The notes under the pieces are model-generated. The model searched no databases, was not told where the DNA came from, and saw only the letters and a program-made list of their open reading frames with translations. A program made the position numbers and the translations under genes. DNA of 64,000 bases from Candidatus Kapaibacterium sp. (GTDB lineage Bacteria; Bacteroidota; Ignavibacteria; Kapaibacteriales; UBA2268), in the NCBI GenBank assembly GCA_963665665.1, contig OY762428.1, positions 3,456,001 to 3,520,000 of the forward strand, read 5' to 3'. Positions 34,713-45,628 of this stretch are shown here, piece after piece (the stretch's first letter is position 1; each line of letters begins with the position of its first letter).

Positions 34713-34957
34713 ACTAATGAAATGCTCCCTATTGCTTAGACAAATAAAAGTATAGTTTATGGTGTTTATTAATCTATACTTCTTCTCTAATAAAATAAGA
34801 AAAAAATATGTAATAATATTAATTTTTCTTTTTTTTGCTACTTTTTTTTCTTTTTGTTAACAACCTGGAAATTGTGGATAACTTTCACTCTCCTTTCTAT
34901 TTCTTTTTTTATCAATTGCTTACCGGATTGCATTTTTTCACTTTTCCAACAAAGTTT

Positions 34958-35803
34958 TCAATTAACGAACCGCTGTTCGTTCATATATTTTTCAGCCGGA
35001 ATCTGGTATTCAATTCCTGCGTGCGGCCTCGTGTTGTTATACCAATCGACATAAGCCTTTATACCGCCATAGAGCTCTTTTCCGTCTTCGTAAGACTTCA
35101 GATACAGGTCTTCGTATTTAAAGCTGCGCCAGAAGCGTTCTATGTAAACATTGTCCAGTGCACGGCCTTTGCCGTCCATGCTTACCTTAACATCAGCATC
35201 CAGAATCGTTTTCACAAAATCATTGCTCGTGAACTGACTGCCCTGATCCGTGTTTGTTATTTCCGGTTTCCTGGTTTTCAAAGACCTTTTTATTGTATCT
35301 ATGCAGAACTCCTTCTCAAGGTTATTCGATAATTCCCAGTCGACGATATACCTGCTATAAACATCTATAATTGCTATAAGATACATAAATCCTTTACGCA
35401 TCGGAATATATGTTATATCCAGGCTCCAAACCTGATCCGGACGACTTATTTTCATATCCCTCAACAGGTATGGATAAATTTTGTGCTCCTTGTTCGGTTT
35501 GCTCGTGTCCGGTTGGGGATATATTGCCCGAAGTCCCAATAATTTCATTAATCGCCTGATTCGTTTATAGTTAACATGGTATCCCAAAGAACGTAAGTGT
35601 GCTGTCATTTTTCTGGCTCCATAAAATGGAGTAATCGCGAATTGTTCTTTGATCAGCTTCATATATAGAATATTTGCTTCACTTTCACCCTTGGGTTTGT
35701 AATAATAACAGCTCCTGCTAATACCCAAAAGCTCGCACTGCCGGCTTATGCTAATTTCTTTATTATCAGCATCTACCATATTTCTACGCTCTTTTTTACT
35801 CAC
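34958..35803 (-). CDS. IS3-family transposase OrfB (DDE)
   Basis: WSLDITY, NTDQGSQF and DNVYIERFWRSFKYE motifs. Confidence 0.95.
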   Translation of the reverse strand: MSKKERRNMVDADNKEISISRQCELLGISRSCYYYKPKGESEANILYMKLIKEQFAITPFYGARKMTAHLRSLGYHVNYKRIRRLMKLLGLRAIYPQPDTSKPNKEHKIYPYLLRDMKISRPDQVWSLDITYIPMRKGFMYLIAIIDVYSRYIVDWELSNNLEKEFCIDTIKRSLKTRKPEITNTDQGSQFTSNDFVKTILDADVKVSMDGKGRALDNVYIERFWRSFKYEDLYLKSYEDGKELYGGIKAYVDWYNNTRPHAGIEYQIPAEKYMNEQRFVN

Positions 35804-39365: not shown

Positions 39366-39411
39366 TAGATATATGTCTTTTAAAGAATTAATTATCCGGA
39401 GGATTTTTTTG

Positions 39412-42400
39412 ATGAAAATCAAATTGTTTACCGCATTGTTCGCGATGATTGTTTTATCGCTGAATTTGACAGCAGCCGAAGTTTCAGTATTTGATGCTGA
39501 TATCAACTCGGGTGACAAGACTTACTGGACTAATGACAACGTATACGTACTTGAAGAAATGGTCTTCGTTGAAGACGGAGCAGAACTTTACATTCAGGAA
39601 GGTACAGTCATTAAAGGTAAAGAAGGACAAAAAGAAGATTCTAAAGCCCTGGTTATCTGCCGCGGCGCTAAAATCTTTGCTGAAGGTACTCCTAACAAAC
39701 CGATTATCTTCACTGCTTACGCTGATGACCCCTATTCAATGACTGATCTTCCGCTTACGGAAACAGGCCTTTGGGGCGGCGTTATCATTCTTGGTAAGTC
39801 CGTTACAAACAATACATCAGGCGAGAAAAATATCGAAGGTATCGATGAAAACGAGCCTCGCGGTAAATATGGTGTTGCAGACGGGGAAGGCGACCCGCAT
39901 GATAACTCAGGTGTTGTTCGCTACGTTTCAATCCGTCACGGCGGAACAGATATTGGCGACGGTAACGAAATCAACGGCCTTTCACTTGGCGCTGTTGGCG
40001 ACGGTACTACTATCGAATACGTTGAAGTATGGTACAACAAAGATGACGGTTTCGAATTCTTTGGCGGAACTGTAAACGCACGTTACCTTGTATCTGCTTA
40101 TAACGGCGATGATTCTTTTGATTATGACGAAGGTTTCAACGGTAAAGGCCAGTTCTGGTTCTCAATCCAGGCAGAAAACCGCGGTGGAAACGCCGGTGAA
40201 CATGATGGCGGTAACAAACCTGATGATTCTGAACCTTATGCACGTCCTGAAATTTATAACGTAACTTATATCGGTTCAGGTTTGAATTCAGAAAATACAG
40301 GCAAAGACGGATCAAAAGGTTTCCTTATCCGCGACAATGCCGGTGGAAAATACTACAACTCAATCTTCATGGATACTCCTGACCTTGGCCTTGAAGTAGA
40401 AGACCTTGAATCAGGACACGATTCACGCGAAAGACTTGAAACAGGCGATCTCGTGTTTAATAATAACATCTGGTGGAATGTTGGCGGCGAAACAACAACA
40501 GTTGAAACAATCAGCCCGGATGCAGAAAAATATTCACAGGATTTTGTAAGGTCATACCTTGCAGATGCTAATAACAATAACTGGATTGTTGATCCTCAGA
40601 TTATGAGCATCAGCAGGAATATTGCTAATCCTGATGGTGGACTTGATCCACGCCCTGCTTATGGCAGCCCTGCATTTACAAATGCTACAGCTCCTGTTCC
40701 AACCAACGGATTCTTTGAAGCAGCTGATTACATTGGCGCTTTTGGCCCCGGTAATCTTTGGATTGACCACTGGACTCTTCTTTCTCAGTCTGGTATCATG
40801 AAAGAACTTCGCAAAACAGAAGTTTCTGTATCTGATGCTGATATCAATGCCGGCGATATGGTAACATGGACTTCAGACAATGTTTACGTTCTGGATGACA
40901 TGGTATTTGTTGAAGAAGGCGCTACACTGACAATCGAGCCCGGAACAGTTATAAAAGGAAAAGACGGACAGAAAGAAGATTCAAAAGCATTGGTTATCTG
41001 CCGCGGTGCAAAGATCATGGCTGAAGGTACACCCGTACAGCCTATCATCTTTACTGCTTATGCTGACGATCCTTATTCAGTAACTGACCTTCCTTTAACT
41101 GAAACAGGCCTTTGGGGCGGCGTTCTTATTCTTGGTAAATCTATAACAAACAACGTTTCAGGCGAAAAGAATATCGAAGGTATCGATGAAAACGAACCTC
41201 GCGGAAAATATGGCGTAGCAGACGGAGCCGGCGATCCTCATGATAACTCCGGCGTATTCAAATATTGCCAGATCCGCCATGGTGGTACAGACATCGGTGA
41301 CGGTAACGAAATTAACGGCCTTTCAATGGGTGCTGTCGGCGACGGTACAGTTATTGAAAATGTTGAAGTTTGGTACAACAAAGATGACGGTTTCGAATTC
41401 TTTGGCGGTACAGTAAATACACGCTTCCTCGTTTCTGCTTTCAACGGCGATGATTCATTTGATTATGATGAAGGTTTCAGTGGCAAAGGCCAGTTCTGGT
41501 TCTCAATCCAGGCAGCCAACCGCGGTGGAAACGCCGGCGAACACGATGGTGGAAATAAACCGGATGACGCAACACCTTATGCAATTCCTTATGTATATAA
41601 TGTAACATATATCGGTTCCGGTGTAAACTCAGAAAATACAGGTAAAGACGGTTCCAAAATCTTCCTTCTTCGCGACAATGCTGGTGGTAAATACTTCAAT
41701 AATATCTTCATGGATACACCTGACCTTGGTGCTGATATCGAAGACCTTGAATCAGGCCACGATTCACGCGAAAGGCTCGAACAGGGAGACCTTAAGCTTC
41801 AGGGTAATATCTGGTGGCACATTGGCAGCGAAACAACAACTGTTGAAACAATCAGCCCGGATGCTGAAAAATATACTCAGGATTTTGTAAGGGAATATCT
41901 CTCAAATGCTGATAACAAAAACGTAATTGTTGATCCTAAACTTTATGGAATCAGCAGAAATGTTGTTACTCCTGACGGCGGACTTGATCCCAGGCCTATG
42001 ATGGAAAGCCCCGCATGGACAGCTGACAGAATGCCCGTTTACGGCGTAAATAATACATTCTTTGCTGTTGCTGAATACAATGGCGCTTTTGGACATTACA
42101 ACTGGCTCAGCGACTGGACATTCCTTTCACAGGCAGGCGTTACAGGCGGTATGGCCGGACGCAACCCGATGATTGAACTTGCAACAGGCGTTGACGAACC
42201 AACATCAGTTGAAGAACAGCCAATCGAAAACAATGGCGAAAACGGAATCAGCAACTATCCCAACCCCTTCGAAGAAACTACTGAAATTCAGTTCTACGTT
42301 TCAGAATACTCAAACGTAAAAGTTACAGTATTCAACTCAATGGGCCAGGAAGTTGAAACACTTGTTAACAAAACTCTTGCACCGGGCCTTTACGGAGCAA

Positions 42401-42492
42401 AATGGACAGTTAACAATCTTCCGGCAGGCGCTTACATAGTAAGAATGGTTAACGGTAACACAGTTAAAACACACAAGATCATTCTTAAATAA
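39412..42492 (+). CDS. Secreted T9SS protein with two tandem ~445-aa beta-helix-like domains
   Basis: Duplicated HGGTDIGDGNEINGL...DDGFEFFGGTVN; NYPNPF CTD. Confidence 0.85.
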   Translation: MKIKLFTALFAMIVLSLNLTAAEVSVFDADINSGDKTYWTNDNVYVLEEMVFVEDGAELYIQEGTVIKGKEGQKEDSKALVICRGAKIFAEGTPNKPIIFTAYADDPYSMTDLPLTETGLWGGVIILGKSVTNNTSGEKNIEGIDENEPRGKYGVADGEGDPHDNSGVVRYVSIRHGGTDIGDGNEINGLSLGAVGDGTTIEYVEVWYNKDDGFEFFGGTVNARYLVSAYNGDDSFDYDEGFNGKGQFWFSIQAENRGGNAGEHDGGNKPDDSEPYARPEIYNVTYIGSGLNSENTGKDGSKGFLIRDNAGGKYYNSIFMDTPDLGLEVEDLESGHDSRERLETGDLVFNNNIWWNVGGETTTVETISPDAEKYSQDFVRSYLADANNNNWIVDPQIMSISRNIANPDGGLDPRPAYGSPAFTNATAPVPTNGFFEAADYIGAFGPGNLWIDHWTLLSQSGIMKELRKTEVSVSDADINAGDMVTWTSDNVYVLDDMVFVEEGATLTIEPGTVIKGKDGQKEDSKALVICRGAKIMAEGTPVQPIIFTAYADDPYSVTDLPLTETGLWGGVLILGKSITNNVSGEKNIEGIDENEPRGKYGVADGAGDPHDNSGVFKYCQIRHGGTDIGDGNEINGLSMGAVGDGTVIENVEVWYNKDDGFEFFGGTVNTRFLVSAFNGDDSFDYDEGFSGKGQFWFSIQAANRGGNAGEHDGGNKPDDATPYAIPYVYNVTYIGSGVNSENTGKDGSKIFLLRDNAGGKYFNNIFMDTPDLGADIEDLESGHDSRERLEQGDLKLQGNIWWHIGSETTTVETISPDAEKYTQDFVREYLSNADNKNVIVDPKLYGISRNVVTPDGGLDPRPMMESPAWTADRMPVYGVNNTFFAVAEYNGAFGHYNWLSDWTFLSQAGVTGGMAGRNPMIELATGVDEPTSVEEQPIENNGENGISNYPNPFEETTEIQFYVSEYSNVKVTVFNSMGQEVETLVNKTLAPGLYGAKWTVNNLPAGAYIVRMVNGNTVKTHKIILK

Positions 42493-42544
42493 GAAATATT
42501 GTCATTCCTTGGGGGTGTGGACCTTGTCCCCCCCTATATTTTAC

Positions 42545-42579
42545 AAATGCCGCCGGGCTTATCAGCAGGGCGGCATTTT
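42545..42579 (+). terminator. Intrinsic terminator
   Basis: aaatgccgcc...ggcggcatttt. Confidence 0.7.
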
Positions 42580-42684
42580 GTGTTTTATTGAAAATGAATA
42601 GGAATGTCTCCCGTTGGCGGGGGTGTCCGAAGGACGGGGGTGGATTTCTTTTTCTTGCTTTCAAACATCGGTGAAATGCCTCTG

Positions 42685-42795
42685 ACCCTTCCTACCTCCC
42701 CCCGACCCCCTCCTTCGGAAGGAGGGGGAGTTAATTCCATGATATTTAACTTCTTATCCCCTCCTAATGTAGGAGGGGATTATAGGGGTGGTTTC
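42685..42795 (+). repeat. GC-rich double-hairpin (REP-like) module, copy A
   Basis: ccccctccttcggaaggaggggg and cccctcctaatgtaggagggg; matches copies at 44313 and 44544. Confidence 0.85.
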
Positions 42796-42918
42796 TTCAT
42801 ACATTATCTGGCGAACAAAGATGGATTCTTCCGTCGCTTCGCTCCGTCAGAATGACAACATAATACTTCCTTCTCCGGCCCTTTCCCCCCGTTCTTCCAC
42901 CGCAATTAACCAAGCACC

Positions 42919-43278
42919 GGCCTTAATTCCCCATCCTGTGGTTTCAATGAACCTGATAATTTCCTTAATTCAAAGCTGTTTTGCTCCAGAATCCTGATAT
43001 TTGGGCTAATTGCTTTGTTGGCAGGGCTTTATACTGCCTTGTCCGGAGGTATTGAAGCATTGTTTTGCCTTAATGTAGTGATATTTGGCTTCATTGCTCA
43101 CTTGTTTCACCTCAATGATGTCTTGTTCGGATTCATTGATGTCTTGTCCGGTCTCATTGCTCACTTGTTCTGCATCACTGTTGTCTTGTTCCGCTTCATT
43201 GATGTCTTGTTCTGCCTCATTGCTCACTTGTATGGCTTCATTGCTCACTTGTCCGGCTTCATTGCTTGCTTGTTTGGC
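42919..43278 (-). repeat. Left 21-bp tandem array, ~17 units
   Basis: Units such as ggcttcattgctcacttgtcc in exact 21-bp phase; well conserved at 43087-43275 and decaying leftward. Confidence 0.88.
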
Positions 43279-43320
43279 ATTGAAATCCCGAAGATAGAGA
43301 TGAGAATAGTCTATAGATAG

Positions 43321-43806
43321 AACTGATAATCAAATATTCAATCTAAAATACTATATATTATACTATTTGTATTAAATATATAGTATTTATAATAATTTAT
43401 ATAATATATCCAAGCCTTGATATAGTTCATCTAACAAAACTTTTTATATAAATAACTAAATATTATATACATATAATTAAATAATTGGTATGATTTATTA
43501 AATTAATTTTATAAACTATTAAATATCAGTATTAACCTATTAATTAATTAGTATATCTAATTTGTTAGAACAATTAAATATATCCTTGGATACATAATTA
43601 ATTTTATAAAAAGAGAATAATAAATAATACTATTTAGTGATTAATGACTTGTATGAATTATTAATTTGATTAATTATATTATTAATATTGTAAATCTATA
43701 TGATTATTTAATAATCTGATAAATATATTTATTACAAACACTTAAATATTTACTAATTCTTATAATATATTTTATTATTCAAATATTATAAATAATAAAA
43801 TCAGTT
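43321..43806. other. Ultra-AT-rich (~13% GC) self-complementary spacer
   Basis: Manual count of 61 G+C in 43321-43800; terminal aactgat/atcagtt; several nested inverted repeats. Confidence 0.75.
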
Positions 43807-43829
43807 AAATATTCCGGATTCCAACGCTA

Positions 43830-44312
43830 CACAAGCAATCATTACCACCAAACAAGGCAGCAATGCCTACAAACAAGGCGACAATGCCTCCAAACAAGGC
43901 AACAATAAAATCAACCATCGGTGCAATGGCGTCAAACATTGGTGCAATGCTTCTGAACAAGGCAGCAATAACTTCAAACAAGACAACCATAATTCCTAAC
44001 AAGGCGACAATGCCTCCAAACAAGGCAACAATAAAATCAAACATCGGTGCAATGGCGTCAAACAAGGCAACAATAACTCCTAACAAGGCGACAATAGCTT
44101 CAAACATCGGTGCAATGGCGTCAAACATTGGTGCAATGCTTCTGAACAAGGTAGCAATGACTCCTAACAAAGCATCAATGACTCCTAACAAGGCATCATT
44201 ATCTTCAAACAAGGCAGCAATAACTTCGAACAAAGCGACAATACTTTCGAACATCTGTACTTTGCCTCTAAACAAGGCATCAATGACTTAGAACATCGGT
44301 TCTTTGCTTTCG
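43830..44312 (+). repeat. Right 21-bp tandem array, 23 units
   Basis: Units such as aacaaggcagcaatgcctaca and aacatcggtgcaatggcgtca; higher-order repeat 43872-43934 similar to 43998-44060. Confidence 0.93.
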
Positions 44313-44669
44313 ACCCTTCCTACCTCACCCCGGCCCCCTCCTTCGAAAGGAGGGGGAGTTAATTCTATGATATTTAACTTCTTATCCCCTCCTAAAGTAG
44401 GAGGGGAGTACAGGGGAGGTTTTCTTTCTTTGCTTCCGACCAAGGCAGCAATGACTCCGACCCCTCCCAAACCCTCCCCGAAGGAGAGGGCTTTGAAGTA
44501 AAACAAGGCAGCAATAGAATAAACCATTGGTTCTTTGCTTTCGCCTCTTCCTATCTCTCACTGGCCTTCTCCTTCGAAAGGAGGGGGAGTTAATTCTATG
44601 TTATTTAACTTCTTATCCCCTCCTTGCGGAGGAGTGGATTATAGAGGTGGTTTTCTTTCTTTGCTTCCG
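44313..44669 (+). repeat. REP-like hairpin modules B (44313-44438) and C (44544-44669) plus a 42-bp hairpin (44460-44501), interleaved with 21-mers
   Basis: Direct similarity to copy A; 21-mer units at 44439, 44502 and 44523. Confidence 0.85.
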
Positions 44670-44761
44670 AACATTACATCTATTTCCACGAGATAGAGAA
44701 CGCGGCTATTGATTATTAGGATGCTAAGTCCGGGATGTCATCCTGAAACGGCTGGTCGGGA

Positions 44762-45628
44762 TCACAGCTTATTATCGAGAATATATTGTGTATTCAGGCG
44801 GGGGTCCTTATAGCCGGGGCTGATTTTCAGGGCTTTGGAAAAATGTTCCAGGGCCTTGTTATACCTGCCAATTCTTGCAAGGGCAAATCCTGTTTTGTTC
44901 TCATTCTCAGCGTAGGCATAATCTCTGCGTACAGTTGAAAGGAATAATTCCTCGTCATAATAATTGAGATCGAAATTACCTGCTTCGAGGAAAGCCTTTA
45001 TCCTGCTTTTTTCATCTTCATCTCTCCTGTAGCGGTAGCATGAGAAAATCAGCATATCATGGTAATAAGCTGCCATATCTTCCCTGTAATCAAGTGCTTT
45101 TTTGAAGAATGTATACGAATTTTCCCAGTTAGCTGTATTCATGTAGTAAATGCCTCTCTTCATAGGCTTATCTATCATGTAGCGGTTAGCATTATCAGAT
45201 TTTTCAAAATTTGCTAAAGCTCCGAGGCTGTCCTTGTTTTTCAGGCTGATAATTGCCAGGTTATTATAAATGTCTGCACTGTCTGCATGTTTCATAGTGA
45301 GTGCTTTTTTTAATGATTGCCTGGCTTCGTCTATCAGATTTAGTTTTATCATGCTTACTGCCGCGTTATTATGAGCGGCTGCTGAATTAGGCATTTCTTC
45401 TATTGCTTTGCGGTATTTTATTATTGCTTCCCGGTCGTTGCCGTTTTGGGACAGCGCCATGGCTTCTTCGAGCGTATAATTTACTTCCTGTTCCCTGTTG
45501 CCTTCAGTAATGCTTTGAAGAAATGGTGGATCGATTAATATAATGGCTGCTGAAATAGCTATGAATACATATATGCCAATTAGTGTTAACGAAATCGCTT
45601 TATCTGAAACTATCGGTTTGTTTTCCAT
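44762..45628 (-). CDS. Membrane-anchored TPR protein
   Basis: N-terminal TM segment; TPR motifs AHNNAA, IYNNLA, ALEHFSKALKISP. Confidence 0.8.
   Translation of the reverse strand: MENKPIVSDKAISLTLIGIYVFIAISAAIILIDPPFLQSITEGNREQEVNYTLEEAMALSQNGNDREAIIKYRKAIEEMPNSAAAHNNAAVSMIKLNLIDEARQSLKKALTMKHADSADIYNNLAIISLKNKDSLGALANFEKSDNANRYMIDKPMKRGIYYMNTANWENSYTFFKKALDYREDMAAYYHDMLIFSCYRYRRDEDEKSRIKAFLEAGNFDLNYYDEELFLSTVRRDYAYAENENKTGFALARIGRYNKALEHFSKALKISPGYKDPRLNTQYILDNKL

Follow-up and report, generated by a model that had tools for sequence, protein, structure and literature searches.

Dispersed repeats in bacteria are usually treated as selfish sequences or as simple hairpins. The REP/BIME elements of enterobacteria are modular mosaics of oriented motifs that occupy gene 3' ends and the space separating convergent genes; binding of architectural proteins (gyrase, IHF) to them is reported. 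Iteron origins, and some plasmid centromeres, are laid out as direct repeats with a spacing of about two helical turns beside an AT-rich segment; such iteron and parC/parS-type arrays comprise 3-12 units, lie beside rep or par genes, and are present once or a few times per replicon. For eukaryotes, elements are known in which two long inverted arms of tandem short repeats surround a middle segment, the arms being the termini recognised by a transposase. Within the Bacteroidota, Porphyromonas gingivalis possesses BrickBuilt, a MITE with a 23-nt minisatellite (PMC4596501).

The locus described here lies in a stretch of 64,000 nucleotides (the window, i.e., the whole stretch of DNA that was analysed) and carries an element built of 21-bp units. 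Similar to BrickBuilt and to MITEPgRS/464, this element belongs to a member of the Bacteroidota and is dispersed, strictly intergenic, species-limited, and present in tens of copies of variable unit number; a unique leader and tail around an array of units of about 20 nt with conserved and variable positions, and the absence of a transposase inside, are further shared features, and the bidirectional promoter activity reported for BrickBuilt is comparable to the outward polarity of the element (PMC4596501). Despite this similarity, there are differences: BrickBuilt is a single array in which 23-nt units (in PgRS, 41 nt) follow one another directly, with 0-6% indels and IS5-like terminal inverted repeats, and neither an AT-rich periodic centre nor a global phase lock is described for it (PMC4596501), whereas the element consists of two inverted arms about a dyad, with a period of 21, an identical register in 54/54 pairs, and no terminal inverted repeats found (the two being compared by description). 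Equally to MITEs, it is multi-copy, intergenic, and transposase-free inside (54 pairs). Its outer ends merge into other REP families, such that no clear terminus can be defined.

Concerning the other systems, the mosaic of oriented motifs at convergent gene ends is shared with REP/BIME elements, and the binding of gyrase and IHF to these is the kind of role proposed below for the element. BIMEs differ in that palindromic units of about 35 bp alternate in them; they lack a strict two-turn period, long minisatellite arms, and an AT-rich centre. Mobilisation by a RAYT was considered and rejected, the single RAYT-like Y1 transposase of the genome being flanked by a different REP family. With iteron and parC/parS-type arrays, the element has in common units of about two turns, which in those arrays carry proteins on one face, and the proximity to AT-rich DNA, and the cooperative filament-like binding known from them offers an analogous mechanism; direct repeats of 17-22 bp at about two turns, as in iterons, are present (21 bp, 0% indels), but the arms are inverted and much longer than iteron sets, with up to 38 units per arm at 54 loci, at convergent gene ends, and with no cognate gene nearby. 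The eukaryotic elements with inverted arms are similar in layout, but a helical-phase lock is not reported for them, and a prokaryotic counterpart of them was not found in the literature searched. Nor did this literature yield a description of an element like the present one, which apparently is undescribed so far.

Organization of the locus

Two mirrored arrays and an AT-rich centre form, at this locus, one copy of a two-fold-symmetric element with a period of 21 bp. Its parts are as follows (positions in the window):

42590-42814, plus strand: outer repeated flank on the S side, with REP-like G+C hairpins and one copy of a 173-nt hairpin module (42642-42814); the repeated span begins near 42590
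42815-43044, minus strand: S tail, the conserved, non-tandem end of the S arm, including about 6 degenerate units of 21 bp that adjoin the array (genome search with a 170-nt query, consensus of 43 tails)
43045-43275, minus strand: left array, S type, 11 units of 21 bp reading outward (Tandem Repeats Finder, PWM caller)
43276-43828, no strand: the core, an AT-rich periodic centre of 553 bp (28 + 25 x 21) made up of two outward-reading half-arrays of AT-rich 21-bp units, dyad axis at 43552 (autocorrelation, register listing, mirror symmetry, 16 gapless copies)
43829-44311, plus strand: right array, R type, 23 units of 21 bp (Tandem Repeats Finder, PWM caller)
44312-44437, plus strand: hairpin module, 126 bp = 6 x 21, with two G+C-rich, outward-facing, terminator-like hairpins
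44438-44542, plus strand: continuation of the R arm in unchanged register, 5 unit lengths, enclosing a 42-bp small hairpin module (44459-44500)
44543-44720, plus strand: second copy of the hairpin module and end of the repeated span

The units are contiguous, without spacers between them, which together with the lack of cas genes among the neighbours speaks against a CRISPR array. Tandem Repeats Finder reports a period of 21 for both arrays, with 9.1 copies and 73% matches on the left (43087-43278) and 18.4 copies and 68% matches on the right (43848-44233); indels amount to 0% in either array, as the strict 21-bp phase of the original prediction implies. Higher-order repeats of 42, 63, 84, and 126 bp are found within the arrays. 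The exact motif ACAAG-N4-CAAT occurs in 7/11 left and 11/23 right units. That both arrays belong to one motif family in inverted orientation, as had been proposed from the letters, is borne out by their outward profiles, which exhibit a similarity of 0.582 at rotation 0, whereas the other 41 combinations of rotation and orientation average 0.248 +/- 0.062 (maximum 0.389) and 500 within-unit shuffles of the left units, each taken at its best rotation, give 0.325 +/- 0.010 (maximum 0.375), far below the observed value.

The PWM caller returned the 23 right-hand units counted before (43829-44311). On the left, about 17 units had been claimed; 11 of these are clear, and the remaining 6 or so are degenerate units of the conserved tail. 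The core had been given as 486 bp of about 13% GC, which fits its interior (43310-43800, 13.0% GC), whereas the full interval between the arrays measures 553 bp with 16.1% GC. Rather than being a distinct, non-repetitive segment, the core is itself composed of AT-rich, 21-bp-periodic units.

In the contigs from short reads (four DNA runs), the unique flanks stop at 42644 and restart at 44595, and none crosses the element, such that the exact array lengths are those of the assembly alone. Read depth is about 13 times that of the flanks in the core and about 80 times in the hairpin module, in line with the copy numbers.

The element family in the genome

Genome-wide, units were called with a PWM of the 21-bp motif, and the 5.46-Mb genome contains 2062 of them in 142 arrays, with 54 divergent pairs. 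The element is a modular intergenic repeat of about 2 kb, a dyad of two outward-reading 21-bp minisatellite arms around a short palindrome, present at 54 loci. Almost all arrays (138/142) are situated within 53 repeated spans, which make up 2.3% of the genome, and none lies inside a unique gene.

Arrays elsewhere are tied to orientation in the same manner as in the window: neighbouring arrays on opposite strands within 800 bp are divergent in 54/54 cases, each with a gap of 7 mod 21, and a convergent pair inside one element occurs nowhere in the genome. The gaps measure 28 bp in 39 pairs, 553 bp in eight, 574 bp in five, and 658 and 700 bp in one pair each. The 39 pairs possess a 28-bp palindromic centre and no AT-rich segment, whereas in the other 15, including the window copy, the dyad centre is widened by at least 25 AT-rich units of 21 bp. 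The proposed association of the arrays with AT-rich cores holds for 15/54 pairs; the core is optional and part of the periodic array. Between neighbouring arrays on the same strand, the spacing is an exact multiple of 21 in 22/28 cases, the hairpin modules of 126 and 42 bp (likewise multiples of 21) included.

Arms range from 3 to 38 units. The S arm terminates in the conserved tail of about 230 bp, whereas hairpin modules of 126 and 42 bp are scattered through the R arm. A 170-nt query from the S tail (42841-43010) has 51 copies in the genome, all of them less than 400 bp from an array; the small hairpin has 98 copies, 78 of them near an array; and the family of the 173-nt hairpin module (D2) has 3 copies in the window, with 84 copies of its hairpin part in the genome. 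The modules are locked to the orientation of the arrays (65/66; 77/78 for the small hairpin; 51/51 for the S tail). In R arms, adjacent units have an identity of 0.74 close to the centre, and this value declines outward to about 0.5 where the arm ends; in S arms, newer unit subtypes are found beside the centre and an older, shared subtype beside the tail. Outward decay from a well-conserved inner end, first noticed in the left array, is hence a property of R arms only, genome-wide, whereas the left arm of the window is of S type. The polar addition of units that had been suggested receives some support, with R arms most homogeneous at the centre and S arms carrying their newer subtypes there and older ones at the tail.

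Periodicity and constraint in the AT-rich centre

The core consists of exactly 25 units of 21 bp plus 28 bp, in a register common with both arrays. Its autocorrelation at lag 21 reaches z 5.6-5.8 in the window copy, and the 21-bp periodicity is found in 16/16 core copies (z 5.5-7.4). When 121 axes were compared for mirror symmetry of the core, the highest value was obtained at 43552.0 (52% vs 37.5 +/- 3.9%), which is where the arrays place the dyad axis; taken alone, the core exhibits imperfect inverted ends.

The 16 core copies of the genome align over 671 columns with zero gaps, a figure set against the general indel-to-substitution ratio of bacterial non-coding DNA rather than this genome's own at equal divergence. 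Of 551 sites, 223 are variable, and the maximum-likelihood tree has a length of 1.82 substitutions per site (about 1000 inferred events). Terminal branches of 0.03-0.12 indicate that the copies diverged in place. Over 23 units and 15 copies, three positions are nearly invariant (A at position 4 in 91%, T at position 7 in 90%, and T at position 10 in 100%), and between-copy variability is 0.003-0.009 at these positions vs 0.03-0.17 elsewhere. As judged from these comparisons, the purifying selection on the core is periodic, and the exact spacing of the element looks preserved by selection. In-register slippage and concerted evolution alone could keep the arrays without off-period indels; the core falls outside this argument. 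Aligned to the core, the seven solo AT islands require 16-27 gap events; their identity to it is 71-76%, a range in which gaps in an alignment are not reliable. With a longest ORF of 30 aa in the window copy, the core is judged to be non-coding.

Genomic context

The window copy is located between the 3' ends of convergent genes, and the same is true for 25/53 classifiable loci, whereas 8.3 would be expected from the 3371 gene junctions of the genome (a three-fold excess; binomial p 7e-8). Selfish repeats acquire such a preference too, through selection against harmful insertions. In agreement with what had been noted from the letters, no recombinase, RT, Cas, Par, or Rep gene is adjacent, the neighbours being a TonB-dependent receptor, a T9SS-tailed protein, TPR proteins, and a subtilase; Pfam found no Rep, Par, or cas genes among ten neighbouring proteins within about 10 kb, and the nearest transposase is of IS3 type with an rve domain (34958-35803).

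Along the chromosome, the spacing of the loci is random-like (CV 0.92 vs 0.98 +/- 0.13 for random placement) and lends no support to a regular chromosome-organising role. A bias of S/R polarity with the direction of replication was considered as well, but polarity clusters along the chromosome without following the replichores defined by skew. The singular origin-like or partition locus that had been suspected proved to be one of 54 dispersed copies with this random-like spacing. Nor does its position point to an origin, as the turns of the GC skew are found near 1.75 and 5.05 Mb, whereas the window covers 3.46-3.52 Mb; the DnaA box (consensus TTWTNCACA) has ten matches in the window and none in 42500-44800.

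Relatives and sequence collections

A motif of two units has 172 matches in this genome, none in a reversed control, and none in 100 genomes of the family; the core has no match in 40 relatives. Among the genomes examined, the element family is confined to this genome and a near relative. A genome of another genus of the family (G081) contains multi-copy, strictly 21-bp arrays of unrelated sequence; inverted arrays abut there at two loci, at one of them around a palindrome between convergent genes, and the repeat frames contain stop codons.

In public collections, the two-unit motif is matched by 10 viral and at least 88 genome stretches, with a single match in each genome stretch except one, a Chitinophagales MAG (L100) with an unrelated-looking 21-bp intergenic array. 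A degenerate motif of three units is matched by 29 metagenome and 4 viral stretches with assorted heptad-coding or satellite repeats, one of which (L144) looks eukaryotic. These matches are read as chance among abundant 21-bp tandem repeats, not as relatives of the element.

Possible function and origin of the element

The element is probably a structural or protein-binding scaffold, not a gene. As a candidate role, we tentatively favour that of a DNA element, either architectural or protein-binding, that depends on helical phase and is carried by an intergenic repeat which proliferates; to this reading we give a chance somewhat short of even; the phased DNA-level scaffold of the original prediction is still the reading that best fits the lack of indels together with the periodic conservation. 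The element would act at the DNA level, in dependence on helical phase: because 21 bp correspond to two turns of B-DNA, every unit would show the same face, and intrinsic bends would sum in one plane. A trans-acting protein may bind the scaffold cooperatively, nucleating at the dyad and spreading outward along both arms; alternatively, the element may work directly as curved DNA. The strong preference for convergent gene ends suggests, speculatively, a role where transcription units collide, e.g., as a topological or termination boundary. We infer that the element multiplied as a non-autonomous repeat.

A more far-reaching version of this reading, which we consider possible but doubtful, would see in the element a new class of chromosomal cis-element, i.e., dyad arrays of two-turn period, GC-richer in the outer arms and AT-rich in the inner segment, that nucleate a DNA-wrapping or filament protein or, as planar curved DNA, pin supercoils at dozens of convergent junctions, with period and symmetry conserved across genera of one Bacteroidota-like family and the sequence turning over, similar to eukaryotic satellite DNA that co-evolves with its binding proteins.

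Non-coding DNA of 13% GC with 16 diverged copies, no length change, and near-invariant bases spaced at 21 bp constitutes direct evidence, at the level of sequence, for selection on helical phase. If a protein or the DNA shape reads this phase, the 54 loci with two centre types and variable arms would offer a tractable natural system for convergent-boundary marking or supercoiling, and an example of bacterial satellite-like DNA with a conserved period and a fast-changing sequence.

The element might instead be a purely selfish, non-autonomous, MITE-like satellite repeat with no host function, lengthened and shortened by palindrome-stimulated in-register slippage, its period and symmetry being founder accidents. 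Restriction of the two-unit motif and the core to this genome among those searched, arm lengths varying from 3 to 38 units, higher-order repeats of 42, 63, 84, and 126 bp as typical of unequal exchange, R arms decaying outward, the placement of the loci where genes have their 3' ends, an IS3-type insertion that splits a core-like AT island, and the precedent of BrickBuilt in the Bacteroidota (PMC4596501) are all consistent with such an origin. Against it stand zero indels across about 1000 inferred substitutions in 16 cores diverged in place, near-invariant positions recurring periodically within the core, exact multiples of 21 in core and module lengths, and the recurrence of period and dyad layout in another genus (G081), where the sequence is unrelated; moreover, BrickBuilt arrays tolerate 0-6% indels (PMC4596501), and here neither terminal inverted repeats nor a matching transposase were found, and the outer ends blur into other REP families. 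We therefore regard a selfish repeat devoid of function as a serious candidate that is nevertheless unlikely.

Strict period and absence of indels would likewise result from a reading frame, and the element could be read as a divergent pair of small genes with start codons overlapping in the central palindrome, S encoding coiled-coil-like heptad repeats and R heptad repeats rich in Q/N/G/D. Predicted S-arm heptads are, e.g., NQVFSKV or KQAWDEV, followed by the conserved C-terminal tail, whereas the predicted R-arm protein would end in the hairpin modules. In the class with 28-bp centres, 36/39 S arms are open outward to within one unit of the array end, with the conserved tail at the finish, and 27/39 R arms are open as far as the array end; an ATG serves both arms in 26/39 centres (GAACATGTTC), heptad positions 4 and 7 stay hydrophobic across S subtypes several bases apart, and terminator-like hairpins follow the R arm in outward direction. 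As ORFs run outward from the central ATG through most arms, the GC-richer arms may be translated. Nevertheless, we deem a gene pair improbable as an explanation of the element. The core, whose longest ORF in the window copy has 30 aa, obeys the same register and no-indel constraint, and the register is held to 21, beyond mere multiples of 3. The ATG is absent from 4/39 centres and serves only one arm in 9/39, early stops occur in 12/39 R arms and in the right arm of the window (4/23 units begin with TAA), and several further frames are open to about the same degree (stop counts over the 2062 units: +0, 122; +1, 182; -0, 95; -1, 164). No wobble pattern is seen, the Gln and Asn/Ser codons being nearly constant at synonymous sites; in the GC-richer units, the positions conserved to at least 90% (2, 4, 5, 12, 13, and 15) fall on all three codon positions, and information content has no period of 3. 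A centre of 28 bp is too short for promoters, and the analogous G081 arrays contain stop codons. Pfam gives coiled-coil noise for S, mostly below curated cut-offs, and nothing for R; a search of 5.8 billion proteins returned one coiled coil, unrelated; and of 712 HMMER matches to an R ORF, all five examined are unrelated heptad repeats, most resembling translated minisatellites.

Even less probable, in our estimate, is outward transcription of the arms into repeat RNAs that are A/C-rich, have little structure, and act as RNA, e.g., by sequestering an RNA-binding protein or by loading Rho, such that the period of the DNA is that of an RNA motif. The outward strand is indeed rich in A/C and poor in T, and the terminator-like outward hairpin modules are locked in orientation; the AT-rich centre contains 12 sigma-70-like hexamer pairs, but 9.6 +/- 2.7 are expected. 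No Rfam family is matched (Rfam 15; best E 0.28 and 0.76, with 22.9 and 19.7 bits vs gathering scores of 100 and 54), the Bacteroidota-type -7 motif is not conserved in the core (none on the plus strand, at most 6/16 copies at any minus-strand site), a centre of 28 bp leaves no space for a promoter, and an RNA motif leaves the multiples of 21 in core, centre, and modules as well as the two-fold symmetry of the DNA unexplained.

An iteron-type origin or a parC-type partition centromere, suggested by direct repeats of about two turns beside an AT-rich segment, is extremely improbable in view of 54 copies dispersed on one chromosome, the lack of a rep or par gene or a partition operon beside the window copy between its convergent 3' ends, the absence of DnaA boxes from the element, its distance from any skew inflection, the absence of the AT-rich segment from 39/54 pairs, and the presence in this genome of an integrated iteron-type replicon whose 44-bp repeats are unrelated to the 21-bp units.

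The spans of the element break short-read assemblies, and the elements are open to mis-annotation as heptad-repeat proteins.

Organization of the element in the window

On inspection of the sequence, the layout of 42919-44690 agrees with the original prediction, i.e., two arrays of one 21-bp motif inverted around an AT-rich core. Tandem Repeats Finder reports, with a period of 21 and 0% indels in both cases, a left array at 43087-43278 (9.1 copies, 73% matches) and a right array at 43848-44233 (18.4 copies, 68% matches). Array ends vary with the profile threshold chosen, and array lengths are taken from the deposited assembly, on which they depend because short-read contigs break at repeats.

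Features of the window element
43045-43275, minus strand: left array, 11 units (profile-based caller)
43829-44311, plus strand: right array, 23 units (profile-based caller)
about 42590-44720: whole repeated span, filling the gap between two convergent genes
ending at 42492: gene of a T9SS-tailed protein, one convergent neighbour
ending at 44762: gene of a TPR protein, the other convergent neighbour

With both arrays read outward and kept in the register of the locus, their unit profiles show a similarity of 0.582, compared with 0.248 +/- 0.062 for the 41 other rotations or orientations and 0.325 +/- 0.010 (maximum 0.375) for 500 within-unit shuffles, each at its best rotation; the claim that left and right share a motif thus holds beyond shuffled controls. 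The interval between the arrays (553 bp) has a GC content of 16.1%, its interior one of 13.0%. The T9SS-tailed protein (1039 aa, 39373-42492) is built from two long halves of high similarity, across which short-read contigs join ('goes back 938'), such that this gene is an assembly hazard, too.

Genome-wide distribution and architecture

The window feature is not a single locus but a member of a dispersed, modular, dyad-symmetric repeat family under a global 21-bp register. In the complete genome containing the window (5,458,198 bp, 38.6% GC), the exact motif occurs 539 times, and an iterated profile scan finds 142 arrays with 2062 units (43,302 bp, 0.79% of the genome); 138 of these arrays fall within 53 repeated spans, which sum to 123 kb (2.3%). 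In chromosomal order, the arrays form 54 divergent pairs ('minus then plus'), and only two cases of 'plus then minus' occur within 1 kb, each between facing outer arms of adjacent elements. The loci occupy the entire chromosome with random-like spacing. The origin-like role considered in the original prediction finds no reflection in the GC skew: the loci are unrelated to its turns near 1.75 and 5.05 Mb (window at 3,456,001-3,520,000).

In 39 pairs, the arms join at a 28-bp centre based on a short palindrome.

Types of 28-bp centre
GAACATGTTC: 26 loci
imperfect palindrome around GAGGTTACTC, in either orientation: 9 loci
GATTATAATC: 4 loci

The remaining 15 pairs possess gaps of 553 (8 pairs), 574 (5 pairs), 658 or 700 bp, equal to 28 plus 25, 26, 30 or 32 times 21. 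As every gap measures 28 bp or 28 bp plus a multiple of 21, one register is common to all 54 pairs.

The element is polar, its two arms differing in type. The S arm (left, minus strand in the window) consists of highly homogeneous units (adjacent-unit identity around 0.92) and terminates in a conserved tail of around 230 bp, whose 51 copies in the genome all adjoin an array in the array's orientation. The R arm (right, plus strand) is heterogeneous, with two kinds of interruption: a double-hairpin module of 126 bp, which has 84 genome copies, and a hairpin of 42 bp, which has 98. Of the copies close to an array, 65 of 66 and 77 of 78, respectively, share its orientation. Both 126 and 42 are divisible by 21, and in 22 of 28 cases the register continues over the modules from one array to the next on the same strand. 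The module hairpins face outward and have terminator-like scores. Among the 54 loci, those of like S/R polarity cluster along the chromosome (S mostly on the left at 0.1-2.85 Mb, mostly on the right at 2.8-4.6 Mb). The switch points lie apart from the GC-skew turns (~1.75 and ~5.05 Mb), and skew-defined replichores are not followed.

The AT-rich core

The core (551 bp) is present in 16 full-length copies, 83-93% identical to the window copy, and 15 of them sit between arrays. It is not, as originally described, a separate AT-rich segment bracketed by the arrays, but belongs to the periodic structure: outward from the middle, in phase with the arrays on either side, its halves consist of AT-rich 21-bp units; autocorrelation peaks at lags of 21, 42 and 63 (lag-21 z 5.5-7.4 in all 16 copies); and mirror symmetry peaks at 43552.0, the exact array midpoint (52% vs 37.5 +/- 3.9% over 121 axes). 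In the unit consensus (15 copies with 23 units each), A occupies position 4 in 91% of units, while T occupies position 7 in 90% and position 10 in 100%, and variability between copies is 0.003-0.009 at these positions vs 0.03-0.17 at the others.

Aligned with 60-bp flanks, the 16 copies yield 671 columns with zero gaps, with 223 of 551 core sites variable (81 singletons) and a median pairwise identity of 88%. Given these variable sites and a maximum likelihood tree of 1.82 substitutions per site in length with terminal branches of 0.03-0.12, much of the divergence arose in place, indel-free. Bacterial non-coding DNA acquires roughly one indel per 10-20 substitutions; from this general ratio, which is not a control measured here, tens of indels would be expected across the copies. 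The core is thus indel-free with periodic base conservation, and its window copy holds no ORF above 30 aa.

Solo AT-rich islands on the chromosome (C1), 8-20% GC, no flanking arrays
1732512, 1194016, 3765241, 2358348, 2399511, 5074580, 2666392: tested islands
166637 and 860332: two more, matched by the AT-unit pattern only

The seven tested islands (~500 bp) are 21-bp periodic, too (z 3.7-6.9). Their alignment to the core requires 16-27 gap events at 71-76% identity, whereas 15 of the 16 embedded cores stay one block under the same aligner. An IS3-type insertion divides one further core-like island (C1 2032443/2034248).

Gene context

Genes were approximated for junction typing as ATG-started ORFs of at least 150 aa, by which 53 of the 54 loci were classifiable.

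Junction types at element loci
convergent: 25 loci, expected 8.3
tandem: 25 loci, expected 36.5
divergent: 3 loci, expected 8.3

Genome-wide (n=3371), 15.6% of junctions are convergent, 68.8% tandem and 15.6% divergent. The elements are enriched at convergent junctions (chi-square p 1e-9 for the overall departure; binomial p 7e-8 for the convergent type and 0.055 for the divergent type).

Occurrence in other organisms

In 40 relatives searched, the core was not found, short AT-rich chance matches excepted. A 2-unit motif gave 172 matches in this genome, 0 in the reversed control and 0 in 100 family genomes, many of which are draft MAGs whose assemblies may lack repeats. Another organism, contained in sequencing runs X4/X5 and around 2% diverged in a flanking gene, possesses core and modules at multi-copy depth. 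A looser AT-unit signature matched 69 times in this genome vs once in the control, and in relatives mostly hit 7-bp microsatellites. Five members of the same family (G011, G044, G063, G075, G046; loci L163, L167-L170) carry many long heptanucleotide microsatellites, with units including TAATTCG, TAATTCC, TAATTGT and TATTTTC; they recall the intergenic heptamer repeats described for Beggiatoaceae, cyanobacteria and some Bacteroidetes (PMC4679880).

A counterpart of the element, brought to light by this looser signature, exists in another genus of the family (g23, genome G081), in which strictly 21-bp arrays of unrelated sequence are multi-copy (17 matches, at least 7 contig places). At one locus (L175), two arrays abut, inverted, around a palindrome between convergent genes, and at another (L172) two AT-rich arrays abut as inverted copies. 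Period and dyad layout therefore recur without recurrence of the sequence.

Matches from motif scans of viral, genome and metagenome collections were judged chance among 21-bp tandem repeats. One intergenic array (L100; Chitinophagales MAG contig JAAFIK010000049.1, 5240-5490; ~12 units of 21 bp) lies upstream of a gene, with G+C hairpins on both sides, and contains ACAAG-N4-CAAT; its S/R-equivalent frame has a stop in each unit. It may represent chance or a distant analogue.

Possible nature of the element

As 21 bp correspond to two turns of B-DNA, selection may act on the helical phase of the element. We tentatively favour, from the sequence pattern, an element working as DNA, which would either offer same-face sites to a putative protein that binds cooperatively and nucleates at the dyad, or take effect through planar curvature. 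It is speculation that the element marks a boundary where convergent transcription meets.

A purely selfish satellite-bearing repeat is a somewhat less likely alternative. Because 21 bp also equal seven codons, a coding function was examined, with the elements as small ORFs of heptad repeats. In one outward frame, no stop interrupts 36 of 39 S arms between a central ATG (or TTG) and the tail, their translation giving amphipathic heptads and a conserved terminus, and 27 of 39 R arms stay open as far as the end of the array. However, the register is held to 21, not 3; the positions conserved to at least 90% (2, 4, 5, 12, 13, 15) cover all codon positions; and stops are comparably rare in four frames. 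Four centres lack any ATG and nine supply one arm only, the window right arm has stops in the same frame in 4 of 23 units, and the core shares array register and constraint, yet ORFs inside its window copy reach at most 30 aa. Pfam returned only coiled-coil noise, mostly under curated cut-offs, and two large protein searches only unrelated heptad or minisatellite translations. Coding is thus improbable. A repeat RNA is very unlikely. Iteron and centromere arrays work in the proposed mode, but copy number, context, DnaA boxes and cognate genes all speak against counting the element among them, and an origin or centromere is hardly credible.

Comparison with known systems

Neither terminal inverted repeats nor target duplications nor a cognate transposase were found for the element. 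A single RAYT-like Y1 transposase gene (C1 1821817-1822161, L160) lies between copies of its own REP family, which has ~10-20 further copies elsewhere in the genome; having its own REPs, it was rejected as mobiliser. REP/BIME elements have their genomic niche in common with the element but differ in structure.

Such an element was not found described in the literature searched. Of the systems described, BrickBuilt comes nearest, a P. gingivalis MITE in which leader and tail flank a 23-nt minisatellite; it differs in its one direct array, tolerated indels and IS5-like ends (PMC4596501). Foldback/Galileo transposons possess similarly inverted repetitive arms, but are eukaryotic.

Other features of the window

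An IS3-family transposase (rve, HTH_21; 34835-35803) is situated ~7 kb upstream of the element, and an AAA_15/AAA_21 (AbiEii-like) ATPase gene (52600-53640) ~8 kb downstream. The 16S-23S spacer contains a perfect 41-bp tandem repeat (59045-59218; 4.2 copies, 100% identical) immediately following the second tRNA gene of the spacer (58981-59053). Its units each repeat the 3' end of that tRNA together with a T-arm-like hairpin, which looks like a fourfold duplication of the tRNA 3' part.
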